Assembly: GCA_031279555.1 (NCBI GenBank)
Contig: JAITIK010000005.1
Coordinates: forward strand, 1,464 to 65,463
Direction: 5' to 3'
DNA length: 64,000 nt
Source: Treponema sp.
Lineage (GTDB): Bacteria; Spirochaetota; Spirochaetia; Treponematales; Breznakiellaceae
In this document: one piece after another, positions 3,574 to 41,643 of the stretch
How the letters are laid out: every line of letters begins with the position of its first letter
How positions within the stretch are numbered: the stretch's first letter is position 1
The notes under the pieces: generated by a model
Seen by the model: the letters and a program-made list of their open reading frames with translations, nothing else
Databases searched by the model: none
What the model was told of the DNA's origin: nothing
Translations under genes and position numbers: made by a program

Positions 3574-3580
3574 AAATATG

Positions 3581-7474: not shown

Positions 7475-8278
7475 ATGATGCGTTTTTTGTTCGCGGTATG
7501 TTGTTTTTTTCTGCTGAATCCCCTGTTTGCGGAAGACAATAACGGTGGTTTTGACGATGGCGGCGGCAATGCCGGCGTCATTGCCAATGGCAATGACGTT
7601 GCGCTTTTCAGGGCGTGTATGAAGGGGGACGCCCCGCAAGTACACGCGCTTTTGGAAGCGGGCGCGAACGCGAATGTCGTCAATAACGGGATATCCGTGC
7701 TGATGTTCGCCGTGAATGCCGGAAATGTTGAAATTGTCAAGCGGCTTGTCTCCGCAGGCGCCGACGTCAATTACAAAAACGATGCGGGTGTTGGAGCCTT
7801 GTTTCTCGCGGCGTATTCGGGCGATGTAGACATGGCAAACGCGCTCTTGTCAAAAGATGTGAATCCCGAAGACGCATACGTCGCCGCGCATATCGCGCTT
7901 CTACGGGAAAATGCTGATGTTGCGGCGCGGTTGCAAGATGCCGCCGAATATGGAAAACTTGACTACCGGAAATTGCGGCGCGATGAATATACAGCGGGCG
8001 CGCGTTTCTGGGTCTATTATAAGGTTGCGCGTATTTTTGTGGATAAGGAATCCGTTTATCGTGCGTTTTGTCTTCTGAAAGAAACAAAAGATGGAGAACC
8101 GAACGGCAATTACGAATTTTATATCGAATCAAAAGAACGGTTCCCTTTCATTGAAGGGGATGTCATAGAAGCCTTGGTCTCGTATCGTACGCTTGAACAC
8201 ACCGAAGTAAGCGTCACGCCGTACCGTGCGGTTGAACAGGCGATTTTTCAAATAGATAAAATAATTGAAATTTGGTAG
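7475..8278 (+). CDS. Secreted ankyrin-repeat protein
   Basis: MMRFLFAVCCFFLLNPLFA is a signal-like N-terminus. Three ankyrin-type repeats follow (LFRACMKGDAPQVHALLEAGANANV.., LMFAVNAGNVEIVKRLVSAGADVNY.., LFLAAYSGDVDMANALLSKDVNP). The C-terminal half is unrecognised. Confidence 0.75.
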   Translation: MMRFLFAVCCFFLLNPLFAEDNNGGFDDGGGNAGVIANGNDVALFRACMKGDAPQVHALLEAGANANVVNNGISVLMFAVNAGNVEIVKRLVSAGADVNYKNDAGVGALFLAAYSGDVDMANALLSKDVNPEDAYVAAHIALLRENADVAARLQDAAEYGKLDYRKLRRDEYTAGARFWVYYKVARIFVDKESVYRAFCLLKETKDGEPNGNYEFYIESKERFPFIEGDVIEALVSYRTLEHTEVSVTPYRAVEQAIFQIDKIIEIW

Positions 8279-8299
8279 CGTCCTTTGGGCGGCGAAACG

Positions 8300-8914
8300 T
8301 CAGGCTTTCTCCGTGCGCATGCGTATCGACAAAGAACGCAATTCATCAACGACATACACATTGCGCACTGCGATTTCCGGAGGGACTTTCAACACCACTG
8401 GGGCGAAATTGACTATCCCTCGAATTCCGGCTGCTATGAGTTTATCTGCGGCGAGCTGGGCTTGATCTTCCGGCACACAGAGCAGGCTTATCTCTATGGC
8501 GAACCGGTTGATGACTTCGTTCATCTTGTAAGTGGGATACAATGGCACTGGCGATGAAAGAATTTCAACGCGGTTGACATTGGCGTCAAAACCCGCTATC
8601 AACTCAAACTCGCCGTGTTGGAAGGCGCTGAAATTAAGATATGCGGAACCCAGTCGCCCAAGCCCCACGACGCAGATTTTCTGTTTGCGGTCAAGGAGCA
8701 GGGTTTTCTTGATGGCGTTTTCCAAGCCGGCGCTGTCATAGCCGCTCGCCCTTCCAATATCTGCGGCAAGGTAAGAAATATCCTTGCGAATAGAATTCCT
8801 CGACCAGCCAGTAAGCGATTCTATGTGCGCGGATGTCAGCATAGCGGCTCCGCCTTTCTCAAGCAGTTTTAAGAGATAGAGAAGCCTTTCTTTTGCGGGT
8901 TCGGGAATCTCCAT
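8300..8914 (-). CDS. rex: Redox-sensing transcriptional repressor Rex (paralog 1)
   Basis: MEIPEPAKERLLYLLKLLEK (wHTH), then VVGLGRLGSAYLNF (Rossmann GxGxxG) and GIRGIVNFAP. The start is trimmed to ATG 8914, which abuts the stop of rlpA at 8916. Confidence 0.85.
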   Translation of the reverse strand: MEIPEPAKERLLYLLKLLEKGGAAMLTSAHIESLTGWSRNSIRKDISYLAADIGRASGYDSAGLENAIKKTLLLDRKQKICVVGLGRLGSAYLNFSAFQHGEFELIAGFDANVNRVEILSSPVPLYPTYKMNEVINRFAIEISLLCVPEDQAQLAADKLIAAGIRGIVNFAPVVLKVPPEIAVRNVYVVDELRSLSIRMRTEKA

Positions 8915-8915
8915 G

Positions 8916-9722
8916 TCATGGTTCTTCACGGATAAGCGCTTCCATGAAACCTGCCTGCCCGATCTTTTCGGCGACCGTTTGAACATCGTCAGCCTTTATC
9001 CCCGAAAGCACCACGCGGTACAAGTCGCCGCTCCGTTCATACACCGGACTCAAACCTACGCTTCTTAATTTTTCAAAAGCAGACACCGCGTTCTTGGGGA
9101 CTCTGAACGCGCCGATTTGCAGACGATACCGCTTGTTTGTTCCCGTGGGCGGAATGGCGGGCTTTATGACCGCTGGCTTTGTCGGTGCAACGGCTAGGGG
9201 CGGCGTTTGCGGAGCGGAGGGCGCGGGGACAGAGGGCGCGGCGACGGCTGCTGCGGACGGCGGCGTTTGCGGAACGGCCGACGCGGGGACAGGGGGCGCT
9301 ATTGCCGCAACCGGATCCCCCGTAGGTCCGGGAACTGCGCCCGCTTCGGCAATGGCAATGCTGACTGGAACGCTGCCACTTGTGATCATATCCAAGTGTT
9401 CGGCGGCGGCTTTTGACAGATCTATATTTCGATTAGAAATAAAGGGTCCCCTGTCGTTTACCCGCACTGTCACCTTTTTATTGTTGTTTTTATTCGTTAT
9501 GGTCAGCAACGTGCCAAAAGGCAACTCGGGATGAGCCGCAGTATAATCATTTGAATTAAAAGTTTCTCCAGAGGCGGTGGTTTGTCCATCAAATTCCGTT
9601 CCATACCATGAAGCGATCCCATCTTCCTGAAAGGTTGCCGCTTGCGCGTTGCACACGAGTGTAAAAACAAAGGCTTCTATAGTAATCAAAATAAACTTCT
9701 TCATATTTCTTTTATCGGTCAA
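8916..9722 (-). CDS. rlpA: RlpA-like double-psi beta-barrel lytic transglycosylase with C-terminal SPOR domain
   Basis: Signal peptide, then ASWYGTEFDGQTTASGETFNSNDYTAAHPELPFGTLLTITN..VRVNDRGPF (RlpA DPBB). A Pro/Ala-rich linker follows. The SPOR-like part is YRLQIGAFRVPKNAVSAFEKL..DLYRVVLSGI. Confidence 0.85.
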   Translation of the reverse strand: MTDKRNMKKFILITIEAFVFTLVCNAQAATFQEDGIASWYGTEFDGQTTASGETFNSNDYTAAHPELPFGTLLTITNKNNNKKVTVRVNDRGPFISNRNIDLSKAAAEHLDMITSGSVPVSIAIAEAGAVPGPTGDPVAAIAPPVPASAVPQTPPSAAAVAAPSVPAPSAPQTPPLAVAPTKPAVIKPAIPPTGTNKRYRLQIGAFRVPKNAVSAFEKLRSVGLSPVYERSGDLYRVVLSGIKADDVQTVAEKIGQAGFMEALIREEP

Positions 9723-9785
9723 TTATAAGAGAAAGATAAACCGGATGCGAAACTTTTACATGAGGAAATCGTCGTCGCTCCTGAA

Positions 9786-9811
9786 TTTTTTCGCAAAATT
9801 TTGCGAAAAAA
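9786..9811. promoter_or_regulatory. Perfect 26-nt palindrome TTTTTTCGCAAAATTTTGCGAAAAAA in the divergent rlpA-rex1 / rex2-adhE intergenic region
   Basis: Read directly from the sequence and exactly self-complementary. Its function as an operator is inferred only from position. Confidence 0.35.
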
Positions 9812-9822
9812 TCAAAAACCCA

Positions 9823-9874
9823 GAGGCTTTCCCAAAACTAACCCGAACGCAGTTCTCGTTTTGAGAAAAGCTCC
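9823..9874. repeat. Hairpin repeat family, copy 3 (inverted core)
   Basis: GAGGCTTTCCCAAAACTAACCCGAACGCAGTTCTCGTTTTGAGAAAAGCTCC. Confidence 0.75.
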
Positions 9875-9877
9875 CTA

Positions 9878-9906
9878 TTGACAAAAATTTTGAAATCGTA
9901 TATTTT
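9878..9906 (+). promoter_or_regulatory. Sigma70-like promoter candidate for rex2-adhE
   Basis: TTGACA (9878-9883), a 17-nt spacer, then TATTTT (9901-9906), about 40 nt upstream of the GTG start at 9946, which has an AAGGAGG RBS. Confidence 0.4.
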
Positions 9907-9945
9907 TATATCGATATATAAATATCTATATAAGGAGGTTGTGCG

Positions 9946-10599
9946 GTGGCAAATTCCGAAGGTTCGGTATCTCTCGCCGTATTTAACAGACTGGCCTTGT
10001 ATGTGCGGCGGTTACGCGACATGAAAGCTGAAGGTTTTGTTACGGTATCGTCGGTCGCTTTGGCGGACGCCCTTTCGCTTAACCGGTCTTTGGTGAAGAA
10101 AGACATTTCGTGCGCTATCGTGAATGAAGGAAAACCCAAAGTCGGCTACAACATTGATGAACTTATTGAAGATATTGAAAGTTTTTTGGGCTACAACAAC
10201 ACAAAAGATGCGGTATTGGTGGGTGTGGGAAAGCTGGGGCAGGCGTTGATGGGGTACCGGGGTTTTGAGAAATACGGATTGAACATTATCGGAGGGTTTG
10301 ACATTGATGAAACCATAGTATCAAAAGAAATCAACGGGAAGAAAATTCTTCCAACCGGCAAATTGGAGAGCGCGGTGAAAAAGCTGAATATAAAAATAGC
10401 GATACTGACCACGCCCGGTGAACAAGCGCAAGCGATAACGGACATATTGGTAAAAGCGGGAATACGGGCTATATGGAATTTTACGCCGGCGCATATAAAA
10501 ACGCCAGATGATGTGGCGGTCAAGAACGAGGATATGGCAGTCTCACTCGCCGTATTATCACAACAGTTAAAGGAAATCCTAAAAAAGGAGTCAGAATGA
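9946..10599 (+). CDS. rex: Redox-sensing transcriptional repressor Rex (paralog 2)
   Basis: 217 aa with a GTG start after AAGGAGG. VFNRLALYVRRLRDM (wHTH), VGVGKLGQALMGY (GxGxxG), GIRAIWNFTP. The stop overlaps the adhE start (ATGA). Confidence 0.85.
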   Translation: MANSEGSVSLAVFNRLALYVRRLRDMKAEGFVTVSSVALADALSLNRSLVKKDISCAIVNEGKPKVGYNIDELIEDIESFLGYNNTKDAVLVGVGKLGQALMGYRGFEKYGLNIIGGFDIDETIVSKEINGKKILPTGKLESAVKKLNIKIAILTTPGEQAQAITDILVKAGIRAIWNFTPAHIKTPDDVAVKNEDMAVSLAVLSQQLKEILKKESE

Positions 10600-13205
10600 A
10601 GAAAGAAGAAAAAAACGATGGCGCCGAAAATTTGGCGCTCACTATCGAAAGGGTACGGAAGGCGCAAGCAATTTTCGCGGCCTATACCCAGAAACAGGTA
10701 GACAAGATTTTCTTTGAGGCTGCTCTGGCGGCCAATCGAGAGAGAATCCCGCTCGCAAAGCTGGCGGTGGAAGAAACCGGCATGGGCGTGGTGGAGGACA
10801 AGGTGATAAAAAACCATTACGCCGCCGAGTACATCTACAACGCCTATAAAAACACAAAAACAACCGGCGTCGTGGAGGAGGACGAGACCTATGGACTAAA
10901 GAAAATAGCTGAACCCATAGGGCTGATTTGCGCGGTCATTCCGACCACCAATCCTACGTCCACCACCATATTCAAGACTCTGCTGGCGTTGAAAACCCGA
11001 AACGGCATCGTAATCAGTCCGCACCCGAGGGCGAAGAATGCGACCGCGCAAGCTGCAAAAATCGTGCTGGAAGCGGCGGTCAAAGCTGGCGCTCCCGAAG
11101 GCATAATCGGCTGGATTGACGAACCGAGTCTTGAATTGACCAACACCCTTATGAGAGAAGCTGACATTATTCTTGCCACCGGCGGTCCGGGCATGGTGAA
11201 ATCCGCATATTCCAGCGGAAAACCGGCTTTGGGCGTGGGAGCGGGCAATACTCCCGCTCTTATTGACGACAGCGCGGACGTACTGCTTGCGGTGAACTCC
11301 ATCATCCATAGCAAGACCTTTGACAACGGCATGATCTGCGCGTCTGAGCAATCGGTGATTGTTCTTGATGCGATATACGACAAGGTTAAAGCTGAATTTC
11401 TTAAGCGCGGATGCTATTTTCTCAATCCTGAAGAAACGGAAAAGGTGCGAAAAACCATTATAATCAATGGATCGCTGAACGCGAGAATAGTCGGGCAAAA
11501 GGCGGCGAAAATCGCGGGATTAGCCGGAATAGCGGCGCCTGAATCCACTAAAATACTCATAGGCGAGGTGGAAAACGTGGATTTGAGCGAGGAATTCGCC
11601 CATGAAAAGTTAAGCCCCGTACTCGCCATGTACCGCGCGCCGAATTTTGAAGATGCCTTGCGAAAGGCCGAGCGCCTTATCGCAGACGGCGGCTACGGAC
11701 ACACCGCTTCTCTCTATATCAATCAGACCAGCGAGAAACAAAAGCTGTCCCAATTCGCCGCGAGAATGAAAACGTGCCGCATTTTGATAAACACGCCTTC
11801 TTCGCATGGAGGCATAGGCGATCTGTACAACTTCAAGCTTCCCCCGTCGCTTACGCTGGGCTGCGGCACCTGGGGCGGAAACAGCGTTGGCGAAAATGTA
11901 GGCGTCAAGCATTTGCTCAATATCAAGATCGTCGCTGAAAGGAGGGAAAATATGCTGTGGTTCAGAACGCCGCAGAAGGTGTATATCAAGAAGGGCTGTT
12001 TGCCTGTCGCTCTTGAGGAATTGAAGTCCGCGCTGGACAAGAAGAAAGCGTTTATAGTCACTGATTCTTTTCTCTATAATAATGGGTATACTACGTCTGT
12101 CGCGGATAAGCTGGACGCGCTGGGAATCGCCCATACGACATTCTTTAATGTGGCTCCTGACCCGACCTTGGCATGCGCGAAAGAAGGCGCCACTGCAATG
12201 AACGCCTTCAAACCGGACTGCATCATTGCCATAGGCGGCGGTTCGGCTATGGATGCGGCGAAGATCATGTGGGTTATGTATGAGCATCCCGATGTGGATT
12301 TCATGGAGCTTGCCATGCGGTTCATGGACATTAGAAAGCGGGTGTACCAGTTTCCGAAACAGGGGGAAAAGGCCTATTTTATCGCCGTGCCGACATCTGC
12401 AGGCACCGGCAGCGAAGTGACGCCCTTCGCCGTCATAACCGATGAAACAAGCGGCGTGAAATATCCCCTTGCCGATTACGAACTCATGCCGAATATGGCG
12501 ATAGTCGACGCGGACATGATGATGAACGCTCCCAAGGGTCTCACCGCGGCAAGCGGCATAGATGCGATAACACACGCGCTTGAAGCGTATGCGGCCATGC
12601 TTGCCACGGACTATACCGACGGGCTTGCGTTGCGAAGCCTTAAAATGATGTTTGAATATCTGCCGCGCGCGTATGACGACGGACAAAACGATCCGGTGGC
12701 CCGTGAGAAGACAGCCAACGCCGCTACGATGGCGGGCATGGCTTTTGCGAACGCCTTTCTTGGGGTGTGCCATTCTATGGCGCATAAACTGGGTTCTTTC
12801 CACCACCTGCCCCACGGCATCGCCAACGCGCTTATGATTGACGAGGTGTTGAGATTCAATGCGGCGGAAGTTCCTGTTAAAATGGGGACATTTCCCCAAT
12901 ACGATCATCCGCACACCTTGGCGCGGTACGCCGAGATTGCCGATTATCTTGGGATAAAGGGCGCAGACGACAACGAAAAGCTTGAAAATCTTATCCGCGC
13001 TGTCGACGCCCTGAAAGAACGGATTGGCATTAAGAAGACCATAAAAGAGTATGGAATTGATGAAAAAGATTTTCTCGACCGGCTTGACGCCATGACGGAG
13101 CAGGCTTTTGACGATCAATGCACGGGCGCAAACCCCCGCTATCCGCTTATGAGTGAGATCAAACAGATGTATCTCAACGCATACTACGGAAAAGACGGAA
13201 GATGA
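10596..13205 (+). CDS. adhE: Bifunctional acetaldehyde-CoA / alcohol dehydrogenase
   Basis: 869 aa. N-terminal aldehyde dehydrogenase domain (..ICASEQSVIV..) and C-terminal iron-type ADH domain (GGGSAMDAAK, HSMAHKLG). Classical AdhE length and architecture. Confidence 0.95.
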   Translation: MKKEEKNDGAENLALTIERVRKAQAIFAAYTQKQVDKIFFEAALAANRERIPLAKLAVEETGMGVVEDKVIKNHYAAEYIYNAYKNTKTTGVVEEDETYGLKKIAEPIGLICAVIPTTNPTSTTIFKTLLALKTRNGIVISPHPRAKNATAQAAKIVLEAAVKAGAPEGIIGWIDEPSLELTNTLMREADIILATGGPGMVKSAYSSGKPALGVGAGNTPALIDDSADVLLAVNSIIHSKTFDNGMICASEQSVIVLDAIYDKVKAEFLKRGCYFLNPEETEKVRKTIIINGSLNARIVGQKAAKIAGLAGIAAPESTKILIGEVENVDLSEEFAHEKLSPVLAMYRAPNFEDALRKAERLIADGGYGHTASLYINQTSEKQKLSQFAARMKTCRILINTPSSHGGIGDLYNFKLPPSLTLGCGTWGGNSVGENVGVKHLLNIKIVAERRENMLWFRTPQKVYIKKGCLPVALEELKSALDKKKAFIVTDSFLYNNGYTTSVADKLDALGIAHTTFFNVAPDPTLACAKEGATAMNAFKPDCIIAIGGGSAMDAAKIMWVMYEHPDVDFMELAMRFMDIRKRVYQFPKQGEKAYFIAVPTSAGTGSEVTPFAVITDETSGVKYPLADYELMPNMAIVDADMMMNAPKGLTAASGIDAITHALEAYAAMLATDYTDGLALRSLKMMFEYLPRAYDDGQNDPVAREKTANAATMAGMAFANAFLGVCHSMAHKLGSFHHLPHGIANALMIDEVLRFNAAEVPVKMGTFPQYDHPHTLARYAEIADYLGIKGADDNEKLENLIRAVDALKERIGIKKTIKEYGIDEKDFLDRLDAMTEQAFDDQCTGANPRYPLMSEIKQMYLNAYYGKDGR

Positions 13206-13966
13206 GGAGGACGACAATGAAGCTGGATAAAATTATAGCCGTACGCAATACAAAGACGGTTTATCGTGATAATGACAAGGTAATCAAACTCTTTGATGAG
13301 AATTATTCCAAAGCTGATGTTCTTAACGAGGCGCTCAATCAAGCGCGTGTGGAAGAAACCGGCTTGAAAATCCCCAGGCTGCTTGAGGTGACGAAAGTCG
13401 AAAACAAATGGGCCATAGTTCTTGAGTACATTGAAGGCAAGACTCTGGAACAGCTTATGAAAGAGAATCCTGTCAAAAGGGACGAGTATTTTGAGTTTTT
13501 TGTAGACCTTCAAATGGAGGCTCATGCAAAAAAATCGCCGTTGCTCAACAAGCTGAAGGATAAAATGTCCCGGAAAATCTCCCAGGCCGATCTGAATGCG
13601 ACAACCAGATACGACTTGCATACGAGGCTTGACAGTATGCCGAAACATACTAAGGTATGCCACGGCGATTTCAACCCAAGCAATATCATTATTGCGCCGG
13701 ACGGAGCCCCTTATATCATAGACTGGGCTCATGCGACCCAGGGCAACGCTTCGGCGGACGCTGCACGGACCTATCTTCTTTTCTGGCTGAACGGCGATAT
13801 ATCGGGAGCGGAAAAGTACCTTGACCTGTTCTGCAAGAAAAGCGATACGGCCAAGCAGTACGTGCAGAAATGGATGCCCATAGTCGCCGCATCTCAAATG
13901 GTAAAAGGCAAGGAAAAAGAGAGAGAATTTTTATTGCGTTGGATCAATGTCATTGATTACGAATAG
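13202..13966 (+). CDS. Protein-kinase-fold phosphotransferase (APH/choline-kinase family)
   Basis: Catalytic-loop-like VCHGDFNPSNIIIAPDG followed by YIIDWAHATQG (Brenner HxDxxxxN plus a D-motif). ATGA overlap with adhE. An alternative ATG lies at 13217. Confidence 0.75.
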   Translation: MRRTTMKLDKIIAVRNTKTVYRDNDKVIKLFDENYSKADVLNEALNQARVEETGLKIPRLLEVTKVENKWAIVLEYIEGKTLEQLMKENPVKRDEYFEFFVDLQMEAHAKKSPLLNKLKDKMSRKISQADLNATTRYDLHTRLDSMPKHTKVCHGDFNPSNIIIAPDGAPYIIDWAHATQGNASADAARTYLLFWLNGDISGAEKYLDLFCKKSDTAKQYVQKWMPIVAASQMVKGKEKEREFLLRWINVIDYE

Positions 13967-13984
13967 GATAAGGAGGATGATGTT

Positions 13985-14227
13985 ATGACAAAAGTAACGG
14001 TTTGTATTGGAAGTTCCTGTCATCTAAAAGGGTCAAGGCAGGTGGTGGAGCAACTGCAGTATTTAATCAAGCGCGGCGGGCTTGGCGAGCAAATCGAATT
14101 AAGCGGCGCGTTCTGCATGGGCAAATGCAATTCGGACGGCGTTTCCGTAACGGTGAACGAGGCGTATTATGCGGTAAACCCCGGCAAAGTGCAGGAATTT
14201 TTTGACGACGTTGTATCTCACGTGTGA
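13985..14227 (+). CDS. Thioredoxin-like [2Fe-2S] ferredoxin (NuoE/HymA-type small protein)
   Basis: 80 aa with four cysteines in VCIGSSCHLKG..GAFCMGKCNSDG, the pattern of thioredoxin-like 2Fe-2S ferredoxins. AAGGAGG RBS. Confidence 0.7.
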   Translation: MTKVTVCIGSSCHLKGSRQVVEQLQYLIKRGGLGEQIELSGAFCMGKCNSDGVSVTVNEAYYAVNPGKVQEFFDDVVSHV

Positions 14228-14310
14228 GTCTTCACTTGAGTTAGGTGTGACTCTTCGCCTAGTCTAGGTGTGAGGAGCGCGCTAACCATAGGCAAGGTAT
14301 GGCAAGGCAT

Positions 14311-14339
14311 ATTCGCCTTCGAGGTTTTTGAAGGCGAAT
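14311..14339 (+). other. Perfect 10-bp-stem hairpin in the spacer before hydS
   Basis: ATTCGCCTTC (14311-14320), loop GAGGTTTTT, GAAGGCGAAT (14330-14339). No downstream T-run, so it is not a canonical terminator. Confidence 0.5.
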
Positions 14340-14352
14340 GCGATAGAAACGT

Positions 14353-16065
14353 ATGGAATATTTGGATTTTAAGACGGCGCGGTGTAAAGACTGTTTCAAG
14401 TGTTTGCGCGAATGTCCGGTGAAAGCGATAAAATTTGAAAACCGTCAGGCGCAAATCGTTGAGGAGCGTTGCATCCTGTGCGGCACATGTACGAGCGTCT
14501 GCCCGCAAAACGCAAAGAAGGTCAATTCGGAGTTGGCGAAGATCGAAGCGATTTTGGCTGGCGGCGGGCAGGCGATCGCCTCGGTGGCGCCCTCTTTTGC
14601 AAGCAGTTTCGGCGTACAGAGCTTCTCAATGATGCGGCTTGCCATCGCCAAACTTGGATTTGCGTACGCCGAAGAGACCGCTGTTGGCGCGGAGGCGGTG
14701 AGCGCGGCGTACGTCCGCTTGTTGGAGACGCATGAATATAAAAACTTTATCACTTCCGCGTGTCCGGCCATAAACCGCATGATTCAGGCGTATTATCCGG
14801 GAGCGTTGAAATACCTGGCTCCGGTGGACTCCCCCATGACAGCGCATGGAAAACTCTTGAAACAAAGGTTTCCAAACGCGAAGATAGTGTTCATAGGGCC
14901 GTGTATAGCGAAAAAAAGAGAAGCTGCGGAGAGCGGAATCATAGACGCGGTTTTGACCTTTGAGGAATTGAGCCAGCTCTTTGCCAATAGAAACATAGCG
15001 TTGGAACGGGCGGCGGATGTCAATACCGGCGATGGCGGTGAATCTGTAAACCGCGCCAGACGCTATCCCATCAGCAGAGGAATCATCAAGTCGTTCATAA
15101 ACCCTCCAGATGAGTATGAATATGTCGCTGTGGACGGCGTAAAAAGATGTTTTGAGGCGCTTGAAGACATAGAAACGTATTCCGGGCTGTTCATTGAGAT
15201 GAATTGCTGCGAATATGGATGCGTTAACGGTCCGTGCATACTGAAAAACCCGGGCGGCGCAATCAAGGCGAACAAGGAAATACGGGATTATGCCAATAAA
15301 AACGCCGCGAATATGGCGGCGGCGGGAAAAACAGCGGCGCGGAGCCTTGATTTGTTGGTGAAGCGCCCGTCGCTCCATCTGCATTTTGCAACGCCGGGAG
15401 AAAGGGACATCCAGTTTATTTTGGCTAAGAGCGGCAAGCTCAAACCCGAAGACGAGCTTAATTGCGGCGCGTGCGGATACTCCACCTGCCGCGAGAAGGC
15501 GCTATCCGTGTTCAACGGTTTGGCCGACATAGAAATGTGCATCCCCTATATGCGCGCCCGCGCCGAATCAATGTCCTATGAGATAATTCAGAACAGCCCC
15601 AACGGCATCATCGTTCTTGACGGGGACTATAAAATACTGGAGTTGAACAACGCGGCCCGCCGGATTCTCGGCATAACCGCCGCGAGCGCGAAGGGCTTGA
15701 ACGCATTTGATTGCTTTAATTGCGGCGACTACCTCATCGCGTGTAGCGAAGGGAAAAGCATACATAAAAAGAACGTGTTTATTGGCGAGACTGGCAAGTA
15801 CGCGGAAATGTCGATTATCCTGTTGCGCGACCATAAAATCATGTTCGGCGTGTATAAAGATATATCGGACAAGGTGGAATTTGACAAAAAACTTGATGAG
15901 GTGAAGAATGAAACCCTTAATACGACAGACGGCGTGATAAAAAAACAAATGCGCGTGGCCCAGGAAATAGCTTCGCTTCTGGGGGAAACCACCGCTGAAA
16001 CAAAGGTGGCTTTGCTCAAACTCAAGAAAACCTTGCAGCGCGAGCATGAGACAGAGGACGCCTAG
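14353..16065 (+). CDS. hydS: Sensory-type [FeFe]-hydrogenase-like protein with PAS domain (HydS / HfsB-like, group C)
   Basis: N-terminal 2x[4Fe-4S] ferredoxin motifs (CKDCFKCLRECP, CILCGTCTSVCP). H-domain motifs are FITSACP, IGPCIAKKRE and EMNCCEYGCVNGP. A Cx2Cx4Cx16C motif is present (C371-C396), followed by a PAS-like segment (IIQNSPNGIIVLDGDYKILELNNAARRILG). Confidence 0.85.
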   Translation: MEYLDFKTARCKDCFKCLRECPVKAIKFENRQAQIVEERCILCGTCTSVCPQNAKKVNSELAKIEAILAGGGQAIASVAPSFASSFGVQSFSMMRLAIAKLGFAYAEETAVGAEAVSAAYVRLLETHEYKNFITSACPAINRMIQAYYPGALKYLAPVDSPMTAHGKLLKQRFPNAKIVFIGPCIAKKREAAESGIIDAVLTFEELSQLFANRNIALERAADVNTGDGGESVNRARRYPISRGIIKSFINPPDEYEYVAVDGVKRCFEALEDIETYSGLFIEMNCCEYGCVNGPCILKNPGGAIKANKEIRDYANKNAANMAAAGKTAARSLDLLVKRPSLHLHFATPGERDIQFILAKSGKLKPEDELNCGACGYSTCREKALSVFNGLADIEMCIPYMRARAESMSYEIIQNSPNGIIVLDGDYKILELNNAARRILGITAASAKGLNAFDCFNCGDYLIACSEGKSIHKKNVFIGETGKYAEMSIILLRDHKIMFGVYKDISDKVEFDKKLDEVKNETLNTTDGVIKKQMRVAQEIASLLGETTAETKVALLKLKKTLQREHETEDA

Positions 16066-16277
16066 ACATGGAATGGGCATGGCGGTTGCGCCGCGCATTC
16101 GTTGAAACGTATGTACCCTGAGTTCGGCGGGAACAATGAGTCGGGGCGAACAAACCCCGCATGTGGGGGTCAATTCCAATAAGGAATGTGGTCGTCTCAA
16201 GTTTATAGGGCAGGTTGAACGGCGGACGCGCTCAAACGTAAAAGGCTCTGTTGCATAGCGGAAAAAGGACAGCTAGA

Positions 16278-17438
16278 ATGAAACTCTATGTGGAAAGCGG
16301 GTACACTTCTTTGAACAAGAAAGGGGAGGAACTGTGCGGGGACAAGGTTGAATCGGCGAGCGATGGAGAATATACTACGGTGGCGCTCGCGGATGGCTTG
16401 GGAAGCGGGGTTAAAGCGAATATTCTCGCCACGCTGACTTCAAAGATTTTGTGTACGATGGTGTCAAACGGCATTGAGTTGGAGGAATGTATAAGCGCCG
16501 TCATCCAGACCCTGCCCGTGTGCAAGGCGCGCGGCATAGCCTACGCGGCCTTTTCCGTGGTGTATGCGAACAAACAAGGCGGCGGTTGTCTCTTTGAGTT
16601 TGACAATCCCGCCGCGATATACTATCACGAAGGAACGTGCGTTGATTTCGACAGAACAGCGCGCGATTATTTCGGAAAAACCGTATACGCAAGCGCGTTG
16701 AATCTGGTTAAGGGCGACTGCATAATTCTTATGAGCGACGGCGTTATTCACGCGGGCATAGGAAAGACGCTCAATCTGGGATGGCTTCGCAAGGATGTGA
16801 TGGACTATCTGAACAGGATGATAAAGCCTTCCATGAGCGCGCGCTGCATCGCATGCCTGCTGGCCGGAGCGTGCAACGATCTGTATATAAACGAACCGGG
16901 CGATGACACCACTGTCGCGGTCGTAAAAATCAGAGAGGCCGCGCCGGTGAGCGTCATGGTGGGGCCGCCCGTTGACAAGGCGCGGGATGATTTTTACATC
17001 GGCAAGTTTCTCGCCAATGAAGGGAAAAAGGTGGTGTGCGGCGGAACCAGTTCCCAAATAGTCGCCCGGCGCCTTCATGAGGAAATACGTCCCGCCCTGG
17101 ACTTTCCCGACAAGGACGTGCCGCCCATAGGGTATATCAAAGGCATTGACCTTGCGACCGAAGGAGTGTTGACTCTGCGGAAACTGCTTGGCTTAAGCGA
17201 AAAATACATCAGCGACGCCGATCTCACGCCTAAATATTTCACAAAGCGGGACGGCGCGTCCATGCTTGCGAACATCCTGTTTGAGGAGGCGACGCATATA
17301 CAATTTTTCGTGGGACAAAGCATCAATTCCGCGCATCAGGGTTTGCCCATAGATATAACCATGAAACTCAAATTGGTGGAGGCGCTCGCCAAAAATCTCA
17401 AAGCAATCGGCAAGACAGTGGAGGTGCAGTATGACTGA
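16278..17438 (+). CDS. PP2C/SpoIIE-family serine phosphatase (HfsC-like)
   Basis: MKLYVESGYTSLNKKGEELCGDKVE..ALADGLGSGVKANILA..LMSDGVIHAG..DDTTVAVVKI are PP2C/SpoIIE signature blocks. ATG 16278 is preferred over the TTG at 16251. Confidence 0.8.
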   Translation: MKLYVESGYTSLNKKGEELCGDKVESASDGEYTTVALADGLGSGVKANILATLTSKILCTMVSNGIELEECISAVIQTLPVCKARGIAYAAFSVVYANKQGGGCLFEFDNPAAIYYHEGTCVDFDRTARDYFGKTVYASALNLVKGDCIILMSDGVIHAGIGKTLNLGWLRKDVMDYLNRMIKPSMSARCIACLLAGACNDLYINEPGDDTTVAVVKIREAAPVSVMVGPPVDKARDDFYIGKFLANEGKKVVCGGTSSQIVARRLHEEIRPALDFPDKDVPPIGYIKGIDLATEGVLTLRKLLGLSEKYISDADLTPKYFTKRDGASMLANILFEEATHIQFFVGQSINSAHQGLPIDITMKLKLVEALAKNLKAIGKTVEVQYD

Positions 17439-18873
17439 TGGAAGAGACATCAAGAAATTTGACACCACAGTGCAGTATTTGAAATACAGGGCGCTCTGTG
17501 AAGTCGCCCGGCATATGTGGAAAGACGATCTGTATGAAAACCTGCCCGCCATTCCAAAAGCCATTGCGCCGGGAAAAGAGCCTACTATGCGTTGCTGCGT
17601 GTACAAGGAACGCGCCATCTTGGGAGAACGGGTGAAGCTGGCGATAGGCGGGGACAAGGGCAACCCCAATGTCATTGAAGTGATAGACATCGCCTGCGAC
17701 GACTGTCCGGCAGGCGGGTATGAGATAACCAGCGCCTGCCGGGGATGTCTAGCGCACCGTTGCGAGCGCGCGTGCAGGCGCGGCGCCATAACCTTCGATC
17801 ATAAACAGAAAGCCCGCATTGACAAGTCCAAATGCGTGGAATGCGGCCTCTGCGCGAAAGCCTGCCCCTACTCCGCTGTCATTAACCTGCGGCGTCCGTG
17901 TGAAAATTCCTGCAAGGTGAAGGCGATTTCCCTTAACAACGCCAAGTCCGCGCAGATAGACAACGGGAAATGCATCGCTTGCGGCGTGTGCGTGTATCAA
18001 TGCCCTTTCGGAGCGATTAGCGACAAATCGTTCATTGTGAATGTGGTGGACATGCTGAAAAAGAGTTGCGGCAACGAGCGGTACAAGGTGTACGCGGTGG
18101 TTGCGCCCTCCATAGCGAGTCAGTTCAATTATGCGAAGCTGGAGCAAGTCGTAACAGGCATAAAGCGGCTTGGGTTTTTCAGCGTTGTGGAAGCCGCTTT
18201 AGGCGCGGACATGGTGGCGGACGAAGAGGCGAAAGAACTGGTGAAAACAGGATTTCTGACCTCCTCATGTTGCCCCGCGTTTGTCACATATATTGAAACG
18301 CAATTCCCTGGCTGCGCTTCGAAAATCAGCGGCGCCCTTTCCCCTATGGCCGCCATCGCCAAATATATCAAACGTTCCGATCCAGACTCAAAAGTCATCT
18401 TTATAGGCCCCTGCACCGCCAAGAAGCTTGAATTTCAAAAAGAGAGCGTCCGCCCTTATGTGGACTCAGTCATTACATTCGAGGAGTTGCAAGCGTTGTT
18501 CGACAGCAAAGACATTGACGTCGCATCTTTGGAAGAAAGCCGTCTTGACAACGCTTCTTATTTTGGACGCATTTTCGCGCGAAGCGGCGGCGTAACCGAT
18601 GCGGTGCGTGAAGCCATTAAAGAAAACGGCGTTGAAGGCTTTGACTTTAACCCTGCGGTATGCGACGGCATTGAACAATGCAAGGCGGCCCTGCTACGCT
18701 TGAGCAAGGGTATGCTTCCAAACAACTTTATTGAAGGCATGGCGTGTATAAACGGCTGTATCGGCGGCGCGGGCTGTCTCACTCACGAAGAAAAGAGCAA
18801 AGCCGGCGTTGATACATACGGCATGGCAGCCTATGAAAAAAACATAAAAGATGCGATTAGCATACTCGGCTAA
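17431..18873 (+). CDS. hydA: [FeFe]-hydrogenase catalytic subunit-like protein with canonical H-cluster motifs
   Basis: Several Cys clusters (CVECGLCAKACP, CIACGVCVYQCP). H-cluster motifs are LTSSCCPAFV, IGPCTAKKLE and EGMACINGCIGGAGC. 8-nt overlap with the phosphatase gene. Confidence 0.85.
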   Translation: MTDGRDIKKFDTTVQYLKYRALCEVARHMWKDDLYENLPAIPKAIAPGKEPTMRCCVYKERAILGERVKLAIGGDKGNPNVIEVIDIACDDCPAGGYEITSACRGCLAHRCERACRRGAITFDHKQKARIDKSKCVECGLCAKACPYSAVINLRRPCENSCKVKAISLNNAKSAQIDNGKCIACGVCVYQCPFGAISDKSFIVNVVDMLKKSCGNERYKVYAVVAPSIASQFNYAKLEQVVTGIKRLGFFSVVEAALGADMVADEEAKELVKTGFLTSSCCPAFVTYIETQFPGCASKISGALSPMAAIAKYIKRSDPDSKVIFIGPCTAKKLEFQKESVRPYVDSVITFEELQALFDSKDIDVASLEESRLDNASYFGRIFARSGGVTDAVREAIKENGVEGFDFNPAVCDGIEQCKAALLRLSKGMLPNNFIEGMACINGCIGGAGCLTHEEKSKAGVDTYGMAAYEKNIKDAISILG

Positions 18874-19058
18874 GACATGCCGTTACGCCAGGCGGACGGC
18901 TCGAAGCCTCATGGTTGATAAAAGCGTTGGAATATAATAGAATGAGCGTGCTCCAAATAAATTAAGCGTTTGCGGCGGGGCGGCATATTCGCGCATTCAA
19001 GCGGCGCGATTCGCAAGCGTGAAGCGAAGAAAAAGAAACCGGAGCGGTGGAGGCGCCT

Positions 19059-19712
19059 ATGATCGCTAGAAATTTTGTTGTTTTTGAAGGCGGGGATGGC
19101 AGTGGCACCACGACTCAGATTGAATTGCTGCTGCGGCGGTTTGAGCGGGAAAAGGCGGACGGAACGCTTCCCCCGCTGTGGACCACACGCGAGCCGACGG
19201 ACGGCGCGATAGGCGTTCTTATACGGTCTGCGTTGCGGGGTGAGATTGCGTTGCAAGCCGGAACGCTGGCGCGTCTTTTTTCCGCAGATCGCAACGAGCA
19301 TGTTTTCGCCGAAAACGGCGTGATAGACCGTTGCAATCGCGGCGAGCTTGTGGTTTCGGACCGGTATGCGCTCTCTTCTCTGGTATATCAGGGCATTGAT
19401 TGCGGAGATGCGCTGCCGAAAACGCTCAACGAGGAGTTTCCCGCGCCGGAAACGCTTTTTTTCTTTGATATTGAACCGGAAGCCGCCCTGAAACGCATGG
19501 AAAACCGGCGGATTAAGGAAATATTCGAATATCTTGACTTTCAGGTGAAAGCGCGGGAACGGTACAAAGCGTTATTGCCTTGGTGCGAAGAAAAGGGAAC
19601 CGCGACAATCACCATAGACGCGGCGAAAACGCCGGATGCGGTCGCCGAAGATGTGTGGAAGGCATTGCAAAAGGTGAGCCTGTTCAAAGCGGCGCAACAA
19701 GCGCGGGTGTAA
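19059..19712 (+). CDS. tmk: dTMP (thymidylate) kinase
   Basis: FVVFEGGDGSGTTTQ P-loop and the REPTDG motif. ATG 19059 follows GGAGG. Confidence 0.85.
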   Translation: MIARNFVVFEGGDGSGTTTQIELLLRRFEREKADGTLPPLWTTREPTDGAIGVLIRSALRGEIALQAGTLARLFSADRNEHVFAENGVIDRCNRGELVVSDRYALSSLVYQGIDCGDALPKTLNEEFPAPETLFFFDIEPEAALKRMENRRIKEIFEYLDFQVKARERYKALLPWCEEKGTATITIDAAKTPDAVAEDVWKALQKVSLFKAAQQARV

Positions 19713-19762
19713 AACAGCGTTTTAGAACAGTTCCAAAACAACCGATATATTAAGGAAACGGT

Positions 19763-23433: not shown

Positions 23434-23601
23434 ACAAGAGGAGACAAGAGAGCCATAATTGCGATAGTTGTTGCAATTGCGGCTTTTCTTATCGCTAACT
23501 TAATAAAGCATCCCTGCCATGAAGGGCGAGGTATTAAAGATTTCTCCTTGAAATCTTGCGTAAAACTGGGGCGGGGAATTAACCTCTTAGTGATTAAAAT
23601 T

Positions 23602-23655
23602 GAGAGCCATTCCCAAAACCAAGCCGAACATAGTTCGCGTTGTGGGAATGGCTTC
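23602..23655. repeat. Hairpin repeat family, copy 6
   Basis: GAGAGCCATTCCCAAAACCAAGCCGAACATAGTTCGCGTTGTGGGAATGGCTTC, immediately 3' of the copA-operon lipoprotein gene. Confidence 0.8.
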
Positions 23656-23657
23656 TT

Positions 23658-24338
23658 CTATTTCAGATTAAAAGGCTTCAAAATCTTGTCCACCTCTATG
23701 GGTTTTCCATTGGCGTCGTCCACGGCAACTGTGGCAAAAACCCATCCCTCAATTCTCGCAGGATCGGCCCCGGCGGCAATGAAGGGGTCGGGATTCAGAA
23801 CAAAAACAATGTCTTTGTCATTGGCGTCCATATCCTTAGCCCACTCAAACAGGTTGCCGCCGCCCAGGTTCACCCCGTAATGATCCATCGCCATGTGGTA
23901 GCCGATGACGCTCCGTTTCAGCTTGACAATCTGTTCATACGAGGCAAGGGGCGTGGCTTCCCCCTGATACCGTAATTGCTCCTGTCCGAGTTTCGCGCCC
24001 ACCATGATCTTGCCGTCATAGCGGGCGAAATTCTCAGGGAGCTTGTCCGGATCAAGTCCCGCATCAATGAATGGGGCGTCGCCGAATTCGATCATCACGT
24101 CATAGAGGGGGCTTTCCGCGTAATTCTTACCCCAGATAAACCGGACGCCGCCATCCGGCGCTGTCAAAGACCAGCCGCCGTTCTTTTCATCAGACGCCAC
24201 CGACTGGGGAATTTGATTCAACACCTTGTCAAAGGATTTCACAGAATCGGTTCCCACCACATCGAGTTTCCCGCAGGAAACCGCCGCCAGAATGGACAGG
24301 GCAAAAAGCCCAGCCCATGTGATTCGCGTTGTTTTCAT
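23658..24338 (-). CDS. Lipoprotein of unknown function co-transcribed with copA
   Basis: The signal peptide ends in LAAVSCG (lipobox-like). The ATG overlaps the copA stop (ATGA at 24335-24338). It contains a His/Met patch, YHMAMDHYG. Confidence 0.7.
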
Positions 24339-26923
24339 TTCGCTTTTCTCCTATTTTTTGTCCCCGCCTTAAACCGCTTGAGCCGCAAGGCGTTGGTCAG
24401 CACCGACACCGAAGAAAGGCTCATGGCGGCGGCGGCGAAAATCGGGTTTAAGAGAGGGCCGCCGAAAAGGTACAGTACGCCAGCGGCGATGGGGATGCCC
24501 AAAGTGTTGTAGCCAAAAGCCCAGAACAGATTTTGCTTGATGGTGCGGATCGTCCGTTTGCTCAAATTGATGGCGGTTGGAACATCCATCAAATCGCTCC
24601 TCATCAGCACGATGTCCGCGGACTCCATAGCCACATCCGTACCGCTGCCAATGGCGATGCCTATATCCGCCTGGACAAGCGCCGGAGCGTCATTGATGCC
24701 GTCTCCCACCATAGCTACAAACCGCCGCTGACGCTTTTCTCCACGCGCAGACTCTGCCGATTCCTGCAACTTTTTCACCTCATTAGATTTGTCCTGGGGC
24801 AACACTTCGGACAACGCCCGGTCAATTCCCACCTGTTTGGCGATGGCCGCAGCGGTCTTTCTGTTGTCTCCTGTTATCATGACAACCTCAATCCCCATCT
24901 TGTGAAGGCTTTCGACAGCCGCTTTGCTGGAAGGCTTCACCACATCAGCGACCGCCACGATCCCCGCGATTTTTCCGTCCAAAGCCGCGTACATCGGAGT
25001 TTTCCCTTCCGCCGCCAGCCGGTCGGCGCCGGCTTCCAGTTCCCCAAGTGCGACACCTCGCTCGTCCATGAGCTTTTTATTCCCCGCCAAAATGCGGCGC
25101 GGACGGTGTAATTTGGCCGCATCATTGCCATCAATGACAACCCCATCAATCCCCGCTTCAATGCCTCTGCCGGTGAGAGCCTCAAAATGGGACGCCGCAA
25201 AAAGCTCCAGCCCCCGCTCTTCCGCTCCTTGTACAATCGCCTGACCCAGCGGGTGTTCCGACCCCTTCTCGGCGGAAGCGATGACTCGCAGGAGGAAATC
25301 CGGTTCAACGCCGGGCGCGGCGACAACATCCGTTACTGTGGGCTTCCCTTCGGTGATGGTTCCGGTTTTGTCAAACACAATAATCTGCGCCTTGTGAGCC
25401 GTTTCCAAGGCTTCCCCGCTTTTAATCAAGATGCCGTTTTCCGCGCCTTTTCCGGTTCCCACCATGATCGCCGTAGGTGTAGCCAACCCGAGCGCGCAGG
25501 GGCAGGCGATGACCAGCACTGATATGAACATGGTGAGGGCAAACTCCAACGCCGATTTCCCTGGAGGCAGAGCGGCAAATCCGGCGGAAGCCGCCGCGAA
25601 CCACGCGACGCCCGCAAGCGCCGCGATCACACACACAATCGGCACAAAATAACCGGCCACAATATCCGCCATCTGGGCAATCGGCGCTTTGGAACCCTGG
25701 GCGTCCTCCACCAGCTTGATAATCTGCGCCAGCGCGGTGTCGCTTCCGATCTTCTCCGCTTTAAATCGAATGACGCCGTTACTGTTAATCGTCGCCGCGT
25801 ACACGCTGTCCCCGGCTTTCTTGTCCACTGGCATACTCTCCCCGGTGAGCATGGATTCGTCTATAGCCGTCCGCCCTTCAACAACCACCCCGTCAACCGG
25901 TATCTTTGTCCCGGGCCTCGCCACAATAATATCGCCGGGAATCACTTCGTCAATGGGGATTTCCTTTTCCACTCCATGTTCAATAATGATCGCGGTCTTT
26001 GGCGCAAGCCCCATGAGTTTTTTAATCGCTTCGCTGGTTCTGCCCTTGGACACCGCCTCAAGGGACTTGCCCAAAAGGATAAGGGCGATGATAACCCCGG
26101 CGGTCTCGAAATACAGCGCGTCCACCGCCTTGAAATTTCCCTGGGCTATCTGCCACACATTGTAGAGGCTGTAAGCCGCCGCCGCCGTGGTTCCAATGGC
26201 GATAAGGGAATCCATGTTGGGGCTGCGGCGCAACAGATTTTTGAAGCCTACGGTATAAAACCGATACCCAGCAATGATGATCGGAGCAACCAGAAGCAGT
26301 TCCACCAGGGCGTAGATCAACGGGAAATTCATCGGAGCCAACGCCTTGGGGAACGGAAGGGCGACCCATGTAATCATGGGAACCATAGCGATATACAGCA
26401 GGGGAAGCCCAAAACTTGCCGCTATGATGAACTTGGTCCACAGGATGCGGATTTCCCGCTCCTTCCGCAGCTTGTCTTCATCCGCCGCGCTTTCTTTGGA
26501 AAAATCCAGCGCCTTGTATCCGGCTTTTTCAATCGCGTCTTTAATAACGGCGATTCTTATTGTCTGGGGATTGTAGATCACCGCGGCTTTTTCTGTGGCA
26601 AGATTCACCGAGACGCTTTCCACCCCTTCCAGTTTTCGGATCGCCTTTTCCACTCGCGCAGAACAGGCCGCGCAGGTCATGCCGCCTATGGGAATGGAAA
26701 CGGCGGTTCCTTTTGGCTTGTCCAGAACTTCGTATCCGATATTAATCACCGCATCTTTAATGCCGGCAAGCGTTTGCGTATCCGCATATTCCACAAACAG
26801 CTTTTCACTGGCAAGGTTCACCACGGCGGCGCTCACCCCGTCCAGCTTCCCCACTGTTTTTTCGATCCGCCCGGCGCACGCCGCGCAGGTCATGCCGCCT
26901 ATGCTTAATGTCGCGTTTTGCAT
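24335..26923 (-). CDS. copA: Copper-translocating P1B-type ATPase with two N-terminal HMA domains
   Basis: [13 protein letters not shown] and [13 protein letters not shown] (2x HMA), CPC ([11 protein letters not shown]), DKTGT ([10 protein letters not shown]) and [13 protein letters not shown] 26923 follows AAGGAG. Confidence 0.95.
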
Positions 26924-27014
26924 GTCATGCTCCTTTATTAACATGATTTAACATGATTTCGACAGGTATGTATTCCGCCCCTCCTCCACGGCTCGCGGCG
27001 TCCAATCCCACCAA

Positions 27015-41629: not shown

Positions 41630-41643
41630 ATGGTCATAATTAT

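Follow-up and report, generated by a model that had tools for sequence, protein, structure and literature searches.

A Treponema gene cluster related to the H2-responsive ethanol/hydrogen switch of Ruminococcus albus

Introduction

In Ruminococcus albus 7, a "putative eight-gene cluster" is co-transcribed and goes 111-fold down when Wolinella removes H2 (Greening et al. 2019, ISME J, PMC6776011). It is carried by plasmid pRUMAL01, where a LysR-family regulator, Rex, AdhE, a phosphotransferase (250 aa), two ferredoxins (Fd), HydS, SpoIIE and HydA2 follow one another on one strand. Here we analyse a stretch of 64,000 nucleotides (hereafter "the window"; GCA_031279555.1, contig JAITIK010000005.1, positions 1,464 to 65,463) from the metagenome-assembled genome (MAG) of an uncultured Treponema, which encodes seven genes of the same families: a redox-sensing repressor (rex), a bifunctional dehydrogenase (adhE), a kinase-like gene, a ferredoxin gene, a putative sensory [FeFe]-hydrogenase (hydS), a PP2C-type phosphatase gene and a second hydrogenase (hydA) (Table 1). 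We consider that this cluster is probably the Treponema copy of the H2-responsive ethanol/hydrogen switch of R. albus, functioning in the way proposed below.

Other described relatives are the hfsABCD operons of Thermoanaerobacterium saccharolyticum and T. thermosaccharolyticum (Shaw 2009), in which the PAS hydrogenase hfsB, the PP2C phosphatase hfsC and the ferredoxin-linked hydrogenase hfsD stand in the same order as their counterparts in the window. A genetic link to adhE expression is known there too (PMC5707799, PMC11837493): deletion of the HydS homologue hfsB raises adhE expression, provided that hfsC and hfsD are intact (Eminoglu et al. 2017, PMC5707799). Unlike in the window, adhE and rex of Thermoanaerobacterium are not linked with hfs, and an APH-like kinase has not been described in the operon. 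At the position of hfsA, the window carries an 80-aa 2Fe-2S ferredoxin. According to Zheng et al. 2014 (J Bacteriol 196:3840), as presented by Eminoglu et al. 2017 (PMC5707799), HydS was proposed to sense H2 and, by way of its PAS domain, to signal to the Ser/Thr kinase next to it.

Gene content and comparison with R. albus

The scan for open reading frames (ORFs) recovered all seven same-strand genes at the positions listed in the initial annotation, with the kinase-like frame open from 13202 (13202-13966) and that of the phosphatase from 16251 or 16278 (16251/16278-17438). Their identities were upheld by searches with hidden Markov models (HMMs) of Pfam and NCBIfam. The cluster-borne Rex scored 260 bits with the equivalog NF003994 (cutoff 130) and contains Put_DNA-bind_N (PF06971, winged-helix) and CoA_binding (PF02629, NAD(H)-binding Rossmann) domains; AdhE scored 1379 bits with NF010378 (cutoff 951), and the ferredoxin 29.4 bits with 2Fe-2S_thioredx (PF01257, cutoff 24.8), being similar to the C-terminal part of NuoE/HoxE. 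HydA scored 558.8 bits with TIGR04105 (cutoff 450). It has intact catalytic motifs (TSSCCP, GPCTAKKLE and EGMACINGCIGGAG), and the H-cluster loops L1, L2 and L3 read TSSCCP, GPCTAKKLE and MACINGCIGG; since TSSCCP and the patterns PCxxKxxE and MxCxxGCxxG are kept, HydA looks catalytic.

The tight packing seen previously was confirmed for the ATGA shared by rex and adhE, the 18-nt gap ahead of the ferredoxin gene, the two spacers flanking hydS and the 8-nt overlap of the phosphatase gene with hydA. A second ATGA overlap, between adhE and the kinase-like gene, stood only in part: an ATG overlapping the adhE stop is indeed present at 13202, but the kinase start is most likely 13217, leaving an 11-nt gap, because all 120 listed homologues are 249-251 aa long with alignments starting at about residue 6, the gene call on an identical contig begins at the equivalent of 13217, and GGAGGA, a Shine-Dalgarno (SD) sequence, is located at 13206-13211, 5 nt upstream of this ATG. 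For the phosphatase, ATG 16278 was retained, as assumed before, since 386 aa is the length of most of the 120 homologues listed.

Table 1. Features of the cluster and its surroundings in the window
Feature	Position	Strand	Description
second rex	8300-8986	-	divergent paralogue, 228 aa, ~1 kb upstream of the cluster
promoter and leader block	9875-9945	+	TTGACA-17 nt-TATTTT at 9878-9906; AT-rich palindromic leader TATATCGATATA; SD AAGGAGG
rex	9946-10599	+	cluster-borne redox-sensing repressor, 217 aa, GTG start
adhE	10596-13205	+	bifunctional acetaldehyde-CoA/alcohol dehydrogenase, 869 aa; start overlaps rex stop (ATGA)
kinase-like gene	13217-13966	+	APH/eukaryotic-like kinase fold, 249 aa; longest ORF from 13202
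ferredoxin gene	13985-14227	+	thioredoxin-like [2Fe-2S], 80 aa; Cys7, Cys12, Cys44, Cys48
ferredoxin-hydS spacer	14228-14352	+	125 nt
hairpin	14311-14339	+	ATTCGCCTTC-GAGGTTTTT-GAAGGCGAAT; stable, 10-11 bp, inside the 125-nt spacer
hydS	14353-16065	+	group C (M2f-type) putative sensory [FeFe]-hydrogenase, 570 aa
HydS N-terminal part and H-domain			2x[4Fe-4S] C11-C50; TSACP 134-138, GPC184, C286, C290
HydS C-terminal cluster and PAS			C371, C374, C379, C396 (4-Cys cluster); PAS ~410-506
HydS C-terminal helix	15910-16032	+	conserved, residues ~520-560
hydS-PP2C spacer	16066-16277	+	212 nt, lineage-specific
PP2C gene	16278-17438	+	SpoIIE/PP2C Ser/Thr phosphatase, HfsC-type, 386 aa; PP2C domain at residues ~1-221
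PP2C C-terminal domain	16941-17438	+	conserved alpha/beta domain, residues 222-386
hydA	17431-18873	+	monomeric ferredoxin-type [FeFe]-hydrogenase (HydA2/HfsD; NCBIfam "B1"), 480 aa; 8-nt overlap with PP2C gene
palindromic repeat, copies 1-6	1606-1660, 3573-3627, 9819-9863, 19717-19751, 23600-23662, 31592-31616
palindromic repeat, copies 7-12	33847-33919, 34004-34045, 35109-35165, 41638-41693, 47143-47219, 57738-57787

A tblastn search of plasmids with HydS led to pRUMAL01, where all seven window proteins have orthologues (RUMAL_RS17350-17385) and where families, order, strand and tight packing are the same. The identities to R. albus are 73% for AdhE, 71% for the kinase, 68% for Fd and 69% for HydA (HydA2), with 40% for HydS, 42% for PP2C and 35% for Rex. 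The locus had initially been presented as a candidate minimal circuit, and this claim to novelty has to be withdrawn: the same order is already present on pRUMAL01 and has been published as co-transcribed and H2-responsive. The initial annotation mentioned a functional link of the R. albus sensor locus to adhE and Rex but missed the physical presence of the same gene order there.

The two clusters differ in several respects. One ferredoxin gene precedes hydS in the window and two tandem ones in R. albus; no remnant of a second ferredoxin was detected by tblastn in the 125-nt spacer, and single-ferredoxin clusters are common among relatives. The long spacers on both sides of hydS correspond in R. 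albus to a gap of ~10 nt and an overlap of 8 nt. HydS and PP2C of the window belong to a different sub-lineage, nearer to the types of Bacteroidales and uncultured Clostridia, and the HydS motif is TSACP where R. albus has SCC. The copy of the spirochaete is chromosomal, whereas that of the Firmicute is plasmid-borne, and the former has no gene for a LysR-family regulator upstream and a second rex in its vicinity.

The putative sensor HydS

Group C (M2f) is distinguished from group D (M2e) by a PAS domain placed after an extra C-terminal 4-Cys cluster (PMC13104023). HydS is assigned to group C and not to group D because its PAS domain follows such a cluster. Pfam matches comprised Fer4, Fe_hyd_lg_C (161 bits), an FeS domain (PF04060) at residues 369-398 and PAS at 410-506; with this HMM match and all cluster ligands present, 14353-16065 takes its place among the [FeFe]-hydrogenases, as previously suggested. 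In the alignment of 13 sequences, with identities down to 38%, all 16 Fe-S/H-cluster cysteines were invariant; they comprise the ligands of the two N-terminal clusters, those of the cubane and the bridge of the H-cluster (C137, C184, C286 and C290) and those of the C-terminal cluster (C371, C374, C379 and C396). The L1 motif TSACP has Ala136 in place of the proton-relay Cys and L2 reads GPC, not MPC. It should be added that loss of the proton-relay Cys is not universal in the group C family, as HydS of R. albus keeps SCC.

Among solved structures, the nearest to HydS were standard hydrogenases (E~1e-18). Judging by domain layout, from which the likeness is drawn, HydS has in common with TmHydS (Thermotoga maritima) and TamHydS (Thermoanaerobacter mathranii) the N-terminal 2x[4Fe-4S], altered proton-transfer residues in the H-domain and the extra C-terminal 4-Cys cluster. 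No segment of the protein is more conserved than the C-terminal helix, which is nearly invariant between proteins that are 38-40% identical overall and is a candidate docking or interaction element.

Longer HydS homologues of 656-675 aa exist in Treponema as well (proteins P0006 and P0007, and 4592-6553 of L053; labels of this form denote individual HydS loci or contigs compared with the window). They are 81% identical over just 59% of the window HydS, and the precomputed Pfam list gives no PAS domain for them, which suggests a variant middle or C-terminal region in an otherwise identical cluster.

The PP2C phosphatase

The phosphatase scored 43 bits with SpoIIE (PF07228, cutoff 25) and has the metal-binding motifs CGD, DGLGSG, SDG and DDTT. 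Its AlphaFold2 (AF2) model, with a predicted local distance difference test (pLDDT) of 80, had Foldseek matches to the phosphatases SpoIIE, RsbU and RsbX with E values between 3e-14 and 1e-9, the best hits being 5mqh (SpoIIE, E = 3e-14), 5ucg, 3ke6 and 3w40. The PP2C fold and the metal motifs are thus common to the window phosphatase and to SpoIIE, RsbU, RsbX and the RsbU-RsbW fusion Rv1364c. Unlike partner-switching systems, the window locus has neither a STAS/anti-sigma-antagonist gene nor a GHKL RsbW-type kinase gene, and the C-terminal domain of the phosphatase is not GHKL.

This C-terminal domain of 165 residues gave no Pfam match even at E = 10. Searched against the PDB, it returned a weak SIS-like profile match (E = 0.005, 55 residues), and modelled alone (pLDDT 81) it found no significant PDB fold, the best Foldseek E being 0.02 with a TM score of 0.35. 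An assignment as GHKL/RsbW kinase, STAS or SIS was supported neither by Pfam nor by PDB profile or Foldseek searches. An exhaustive profile search placed the domain in ~1,000 50%-identity clusters. Since the near-full-length hits (~380-400 aa) have it at ~225-390, i.e. at the C-terminus of sequences of ~385-395 aa, it is apparently specific to the HfsC-type phosphatase family; shorter matches (87-350 aa) were numerous and may be fragments. The signature of the domain comprises GPPVD, KKVVCGGTSS, PPIG, TEGVLT, DGAS and VGQSxNxAHQGLPID.

Architectures in other genomes

Scanning one genome per species with a HydS alignment yielded 598 or more confirmed loci. In the 80 best-matching ones, the seven window proteins were located by tblastn, and architectures were tallied wherever upstream sequence of at least 4.7 kb was available for hydS (63 loci). 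The fractions below are not population frequencies, since the 80 loci were chosen for their similarity to the query.

The complete order Rex-AdhE-kinase-Fd(-Fd)-HydS was found in 13 of the 63 loci, namely in 12 Bacillota and in Treponema L053, which was counted although its Rex fell just beyond the script window. AdhE and kinase without Rex occurred in 6/63, Rex and AdhE without kinase in 4/63 (all Bacteroidota, with AdhE merely 48% identical), the kinase without AdhE in 4/63 and Rex alone in 5/63, while 31/63 consisted of the core Fd-HydS-PP2C-HydA only. AdhE was adjacent in 23 of the 63 informative HydS loci. The core Fd-HydS-PP2C(-HydA) was nearly universal, with PP2C beside HydS in essentially every locus; the kinase was present in about a third of loci and absent from all Bacteroidota versions. 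One locus, L039, had the permuted order Rex-Fd-HydS-PP2C-HydA-AdhE-kinase.

The synteny comparison hence extended the adjacency to related and unrelated genomes and did not bear out a chance juxtaposition: because the arrangement recurs in many genomes, it goes far beyond chance, and the linkage is under selection. That Rex, a putative H2 sensor, a phosphatase, a kinase-like protein and two redox outputs are assembled in one unit, as the initial annotation had it, is supported by these data. Its "kinase-like/PP2C pair" is valid in so far as both genes are present; the pairing has less behind it than was claimed, as the kinase occurs in about one third of loci and tracks the history of AdhE.

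Co-inheritance of modules

The identity of each locus to the window proteins was taken as a crude phylogenetic profile. The resulting correlations, which are of the mirror-tree type and not proof of contact, were r = 0.96 for HydS and PP2C (n = 78), 0.93 for Fd and HydA (n = 45), 0.80 for AdhE and kinase (n = 20) and 0.75 for Rex and HydS (n = 26), as opposed to -0.41 for HydS and HydA (n = 59), -0.19 for Fd and HydS (n = 58) and 0.38 for kinase and PP2C. In R. albus, for example, identity to the window is 68-73% for AdhE, kinase, Fd and HydA and just 40-42% for HydS and PP2C. Judged by these profiles, three co-inherited pairs make up the mosaic of the cluster: HydS and PP2C, Fd and HydA, and AdhE and kinase. 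In keeping with this pattern, sensing and transduction would fall to HydS and PP2C as one unit, the small ferredoxin would be paired with the catalytic HydA and not with the sensor, and the kinase would be an accessory with a link to AdhE.

The same data bear on a different reading of the core, according to which Fd-HydS-PP2C-HydA would be mainly a working hydrogenase system and not a gene-expression circuit: HydS would act as an electron-transfer or low-activity subunit, PP2C would tune the enzyme after translation, and adhE and rex would be nearby merely as redox disposal. Hfs was reportedly first presented as the main H2-evolving enzyme of Thermoanaerobacterium. The 31 of 63 loci with the core and without rex, adhE or kinase agree with such a role, as does the lack, apart from Rex, of any DNA-binding output domain among the Pfam and NCBIfam matches of the locus. 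Furthermore, removal of the entire hfs operon lowers hydrogenase activity, and Eminoglu et al. saw alcohol dehydrogenase (ADH) but not aldehyde dehydrogenase (ALDH) activity rise and suggested post-transcriptional control (PMC5707799). Against this, the deletion of hfsB alone raised hydrogenase activity in Thermoanaerobacterium and changed adhE transcripts (PMC5707799), and the entire R. albus cluster is transcriptionally switched with H2 (PMC6776011). HydS of the window is, moreover, devoid of the proton-relay Cys and equipped with a PAS domain. Its history is tightly bound to that of PP2C and anticorrelated with that of HydA; therefore, a sensor-transducer pair fits better than a HydS-HydA enzyme complex, and we regard the hydrogenase-system reading as unlikely.

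The kinase-like protein

The kinase-like protein scored 51.3 bits with APH (PF01636, cutoff 23), with weaker, sub-threshold matches to RIO1, Pkinase (26.6 bits, cutoff 31.7) and Bud32; its top sequence match in the PDB was a choline kinase (E = 1e-4). Across 17 homologues K24, E38, H149-G150 and D169 were invariant, and D151 and N156 nearly so. With its beta3 Lys, alphaC Glu, HGD...N loop and metal-binding Asp conserved, the sequence looks like that of an active kinase.

Another reading is conceivable for its role: the kinase may not be the counter-enzyme of the phosphatase and may act with or on AdhE, or be a small-molecule kinase of the APH/choline-kinase type. We give this some credence, well short of an even chance. 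Apart from the database matches above, with APH the best Pfam family, choline kinase the best PDB match and Pkinase below its cutoff, it is favoured by the position of the kinase directly after adhE in most loci having both genes, including L039, where the pair comes after HydA, by the higher correlation with AdhE than with PP2C, and by the Bacteroidota clusters, which run without a kinase. On the other hand, in at least nine loci (L061, L062, L064, L068, L069, L075, L077, L081 and L082), several of them near a contig end, the kinase stands immediately upstream of Fd-HydS and no AdhE match adjoins it, so that its position is tied to the sensor module too. Every kinase detected here lay inside a HydS cluster, and Zheng et al. 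2014, as reported by Eminoglu et al. 2017 (PMC5707799), treat it as a Ser/Thr protein kinase.

Origin of the cluster in Treponema

HydS, PP2C and the kinase of the window are identical or closest to proteins of Treponema sp. MAGs, and the next-closest homologues come from uncultured gut Clostridia, not from spirochaetes. Identities to these Clostridia amount to 60-65% for Rex, 79-83% for AdhE, 74-83% for the kinase, 61-63% for HydS, 68-72% for PP2C and 70-75% for HydA. The neighbour-joining trees for AdhE, the kinase, Rex and HydA each show Treponema as one clade nested among these Clostridia (L005, L006, L008, L009 and L010). The congruence of the four trees and the identity levels of the seven proteins argue for transfer of the whole block from a Clostridia-like donor; most likely, the cluster entered the Treponema lineage horizontally from gut Clostridia, across phyla. 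It is flanked by genes for an RlpA-like SPOR protein on one side and for thymidylate kinase (tmk) on the other, and is found at this identical chromosomal site in at least three Treponema contigs (the others being L085 and L086), which are 84-93% identical.

Such an origin raises the question of whether the cluster could be a recently acquired passenger, inactive or decaying in this Treponema, with the spacers as scars of decay. Besides the phylogeny and the 60-83% identity pointing to Clostridia, this would be consistent with the lineage-specific insertions on either side of hydS, with the native divergent rex already next door, and with the split hydS and hydA gene calls of L086. We nevertheless consider it very improbable: the seven window ORFs are full length in comparison with hundreds of homologues and their catalytic and ligand residues are all intact, the same rlpA-like/tmk site is occupied in at least three Treponema contigs, and the near-perfect conservation of the promoter block (see below) indicates selection.

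In most Bacillota and Bacteroidota loci, hydS and the PP2C gene are a few tens of nucleotides apart at most. The 212-nt spacer is ~80% shared with L086, where an additional insertion of ~180 nt with hairpins is present, and is shorter in L085; as the hydS-PP2C gap is only 9 nt in Treponema L053, long spacers characterise part of the Treponema lineage only. The 125-nt spacer folds better than 200 of 200 shuffles (z = -3.1), with a hairpin that is only weakly terminator-like, and other Treponema contigs show little conservation of its sequence. For the 212-nt spacer, a structured RNA was rejected, as no significant fold was seen (z = +0.38). An Rfam scan of 9500-19200 gave a sub-threshold snoRNA match alone, with no riboswitch or leader family and no match in either spacer. 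An origin of the spacers from dispersed repeats was likewise discarded, as no repeat family covers either of them.

Promoter region and Rex

The TTGACA-17-TATTTT element was the best sigma-70-like match of the region (10/12). The surrounding block of ~70 nt is nearly 100% identical in L085 and L086, while the proteins encoded there are merely 84-93% identical; with protein differences of 7-16% between the three Treponema contigs, this near-identity argues that the block is functional. The scan of the cluster gave this promoter-like site upstream of rex and no strong internal terminator.

The second Rex scored 143 bits with NF003995 (cutoff 126), has a CoA_binding domain and is 29% identical to the cluster-borne one. 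Its gene adjoins the cluster in Treponema L086 too, and is plausibly the resident copy. With two Rex proteins in one genome, their operators may differ.

In eight other loci (L002, L017, L028, L063, L067, L071, L072 and L079), Rex boxes with up to two mismatches lie directly 5' of the first operon gene, making Rex control of such operons plausible in general; at the rex promoter of the window, Rex may play a corresponding role.

The divergent intergenic region upstream of rex contains a perfect 28-nt AT-rich palindrome, ATTTTTTCGCAAAATTTTGCGAAAAAAT, at 9785-9812. It was considered as an operator and rejected, being partly kept in L086 and missing from L085. Just upstream of the rex promoter lies also one copy of a dispersed palindromic intergenic repeat of ~45-55 nt, with the core GCCTGTTCCAAAACGCGAAC...GTTCGGGTTTTGGAACAGGCT and at least 10 copies in the window (Table 1), which looks REP- or MITE-like. 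This copy is absent from the orthologous position of L086, so the repeat is apparently mobile or insertional.

Proposed functioning of the cluster

If the cluster works as the Treponema counterpart of the R. albus switch, build-up of H2 would block the reoxidation of NADH via H2 formation, and Rex would sense the higher NADH/NAD+ ratio. In parallel, HydS would bind H2 at its H-cluster, which we propose to make it a poor catalyst and a good sensor, as the proton-relay Cys is missing. Via the PAS domain and the invariant C-terminal helix, HydS might then alter the activity of its co-inherited partner PP2C. The phosphorylation state of some target, set by the APH-like kinase where present, would raise expression and/or activity of AdhE, and NADH would be disposed of as ethanol. 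The same phospho-state would raise the ferredoxin-dependent HydA, so that, together with the co-inherited 2Fe-2S ferredoxin, reduced ferredoxin could leave as H2.

Several observations weigh against this scheme. The source is the MAG of an uncultured Treponema, in which the cluster is known from sequence alone; co-transcription, H2-dependent expression and the effect of hfsB deletion on adhE come from the literature on R. albus and Thermoanaerobacterium only (PMC6776011, PMC5707799). The canonical Rex operator TTGTGAA-N4-TTCACAA, with up to three mismatches, matched the window four times against 3.4 expected; the sole match near the cluster (9779-9796, three mismatches) is at chance frequency, and a K/M-degenerate N4/N6 scan with up to two mismatches detected none near the cluster. 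The 125-nt and 212-nt spacers are atypical, gaps being much shorter in most loci, and might interrupt translational coupling or harbour internal promoters. As most HydS-PP2C loci are without a kinase, this protein is not obligate in the signalling path. In the gene calls of the sister contig L086, hydS is truncated (7666-9135, 489 aa) and hydA split (10663-12251; 227 + 181 + 87 aa), and these fragments may reflect decay in that lineage or assembly errors. No hydE/F/G maturase genes were found among the scanned window ORFs, which were only a subset. Finally, a 2026 study reports that in a related group D sensor the C-terminal cluster keeps its redox state under H2 and, in line with the initial annotation, that interaction partners of the sensors are still unidentified (PMC13104023).

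A more far-reaching version is conceivable, although we attach rather low probability to it. The cluster might be a mobile modular cassette moving among Bacillota, Bacteroidota and Spirochaetota, in which HydS and PP2C form an obligate complex, with the C-terminal helix of HydS as the contact and the 165-residue domain of PP2C as output or ligand element, AdhE and kinase make up a second pair, and AdhE or Rex is phosphorylated. The history of the cluster-borne Rex follows that of HydS and PP2C. Should this version be true, H2 would control ethanol formation post-translationally as well as by transcription.

Other features of the window

A copper/heavy-metal P-type ATPase with two HMA domains is encoded near an HMA-DsbD-like membrane protein at 24335-30190 (-), unrelated to the cluster. 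The ATPase ORF (24335-26944, -) was considered as a second AdhE because of its 869 aa and dismissed, the equal length being coincidental. Within ORF 30745-31455 (-), a 42-nt tandem repeat (family D1) with 5-6 copies of 95% identity at 31164-31415 would encode a 14-residue protein repeat.

Conclusions

H2 sensing and the shift between acetate plus H2 and ethanol in fermenters matter for rumen methane, for the H2 economy of the termite gut and for biofuel strains. R. albus 7, which is culturable, has the same cluster and shows the H2 response, is a better system for its study than an uncultured Treponema MAG. New here are the wide distribution of the cassette among uncultured gut Clostridia and Bacteroidales, its probable passage into Treponema, and comparative data that favour HydS-PP2C as the conserved core of signalling, with the kinase demoted to an accessory. 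The uncharacterised conserved domain of the phosphatase deserves inclusion in any mechanistic study.

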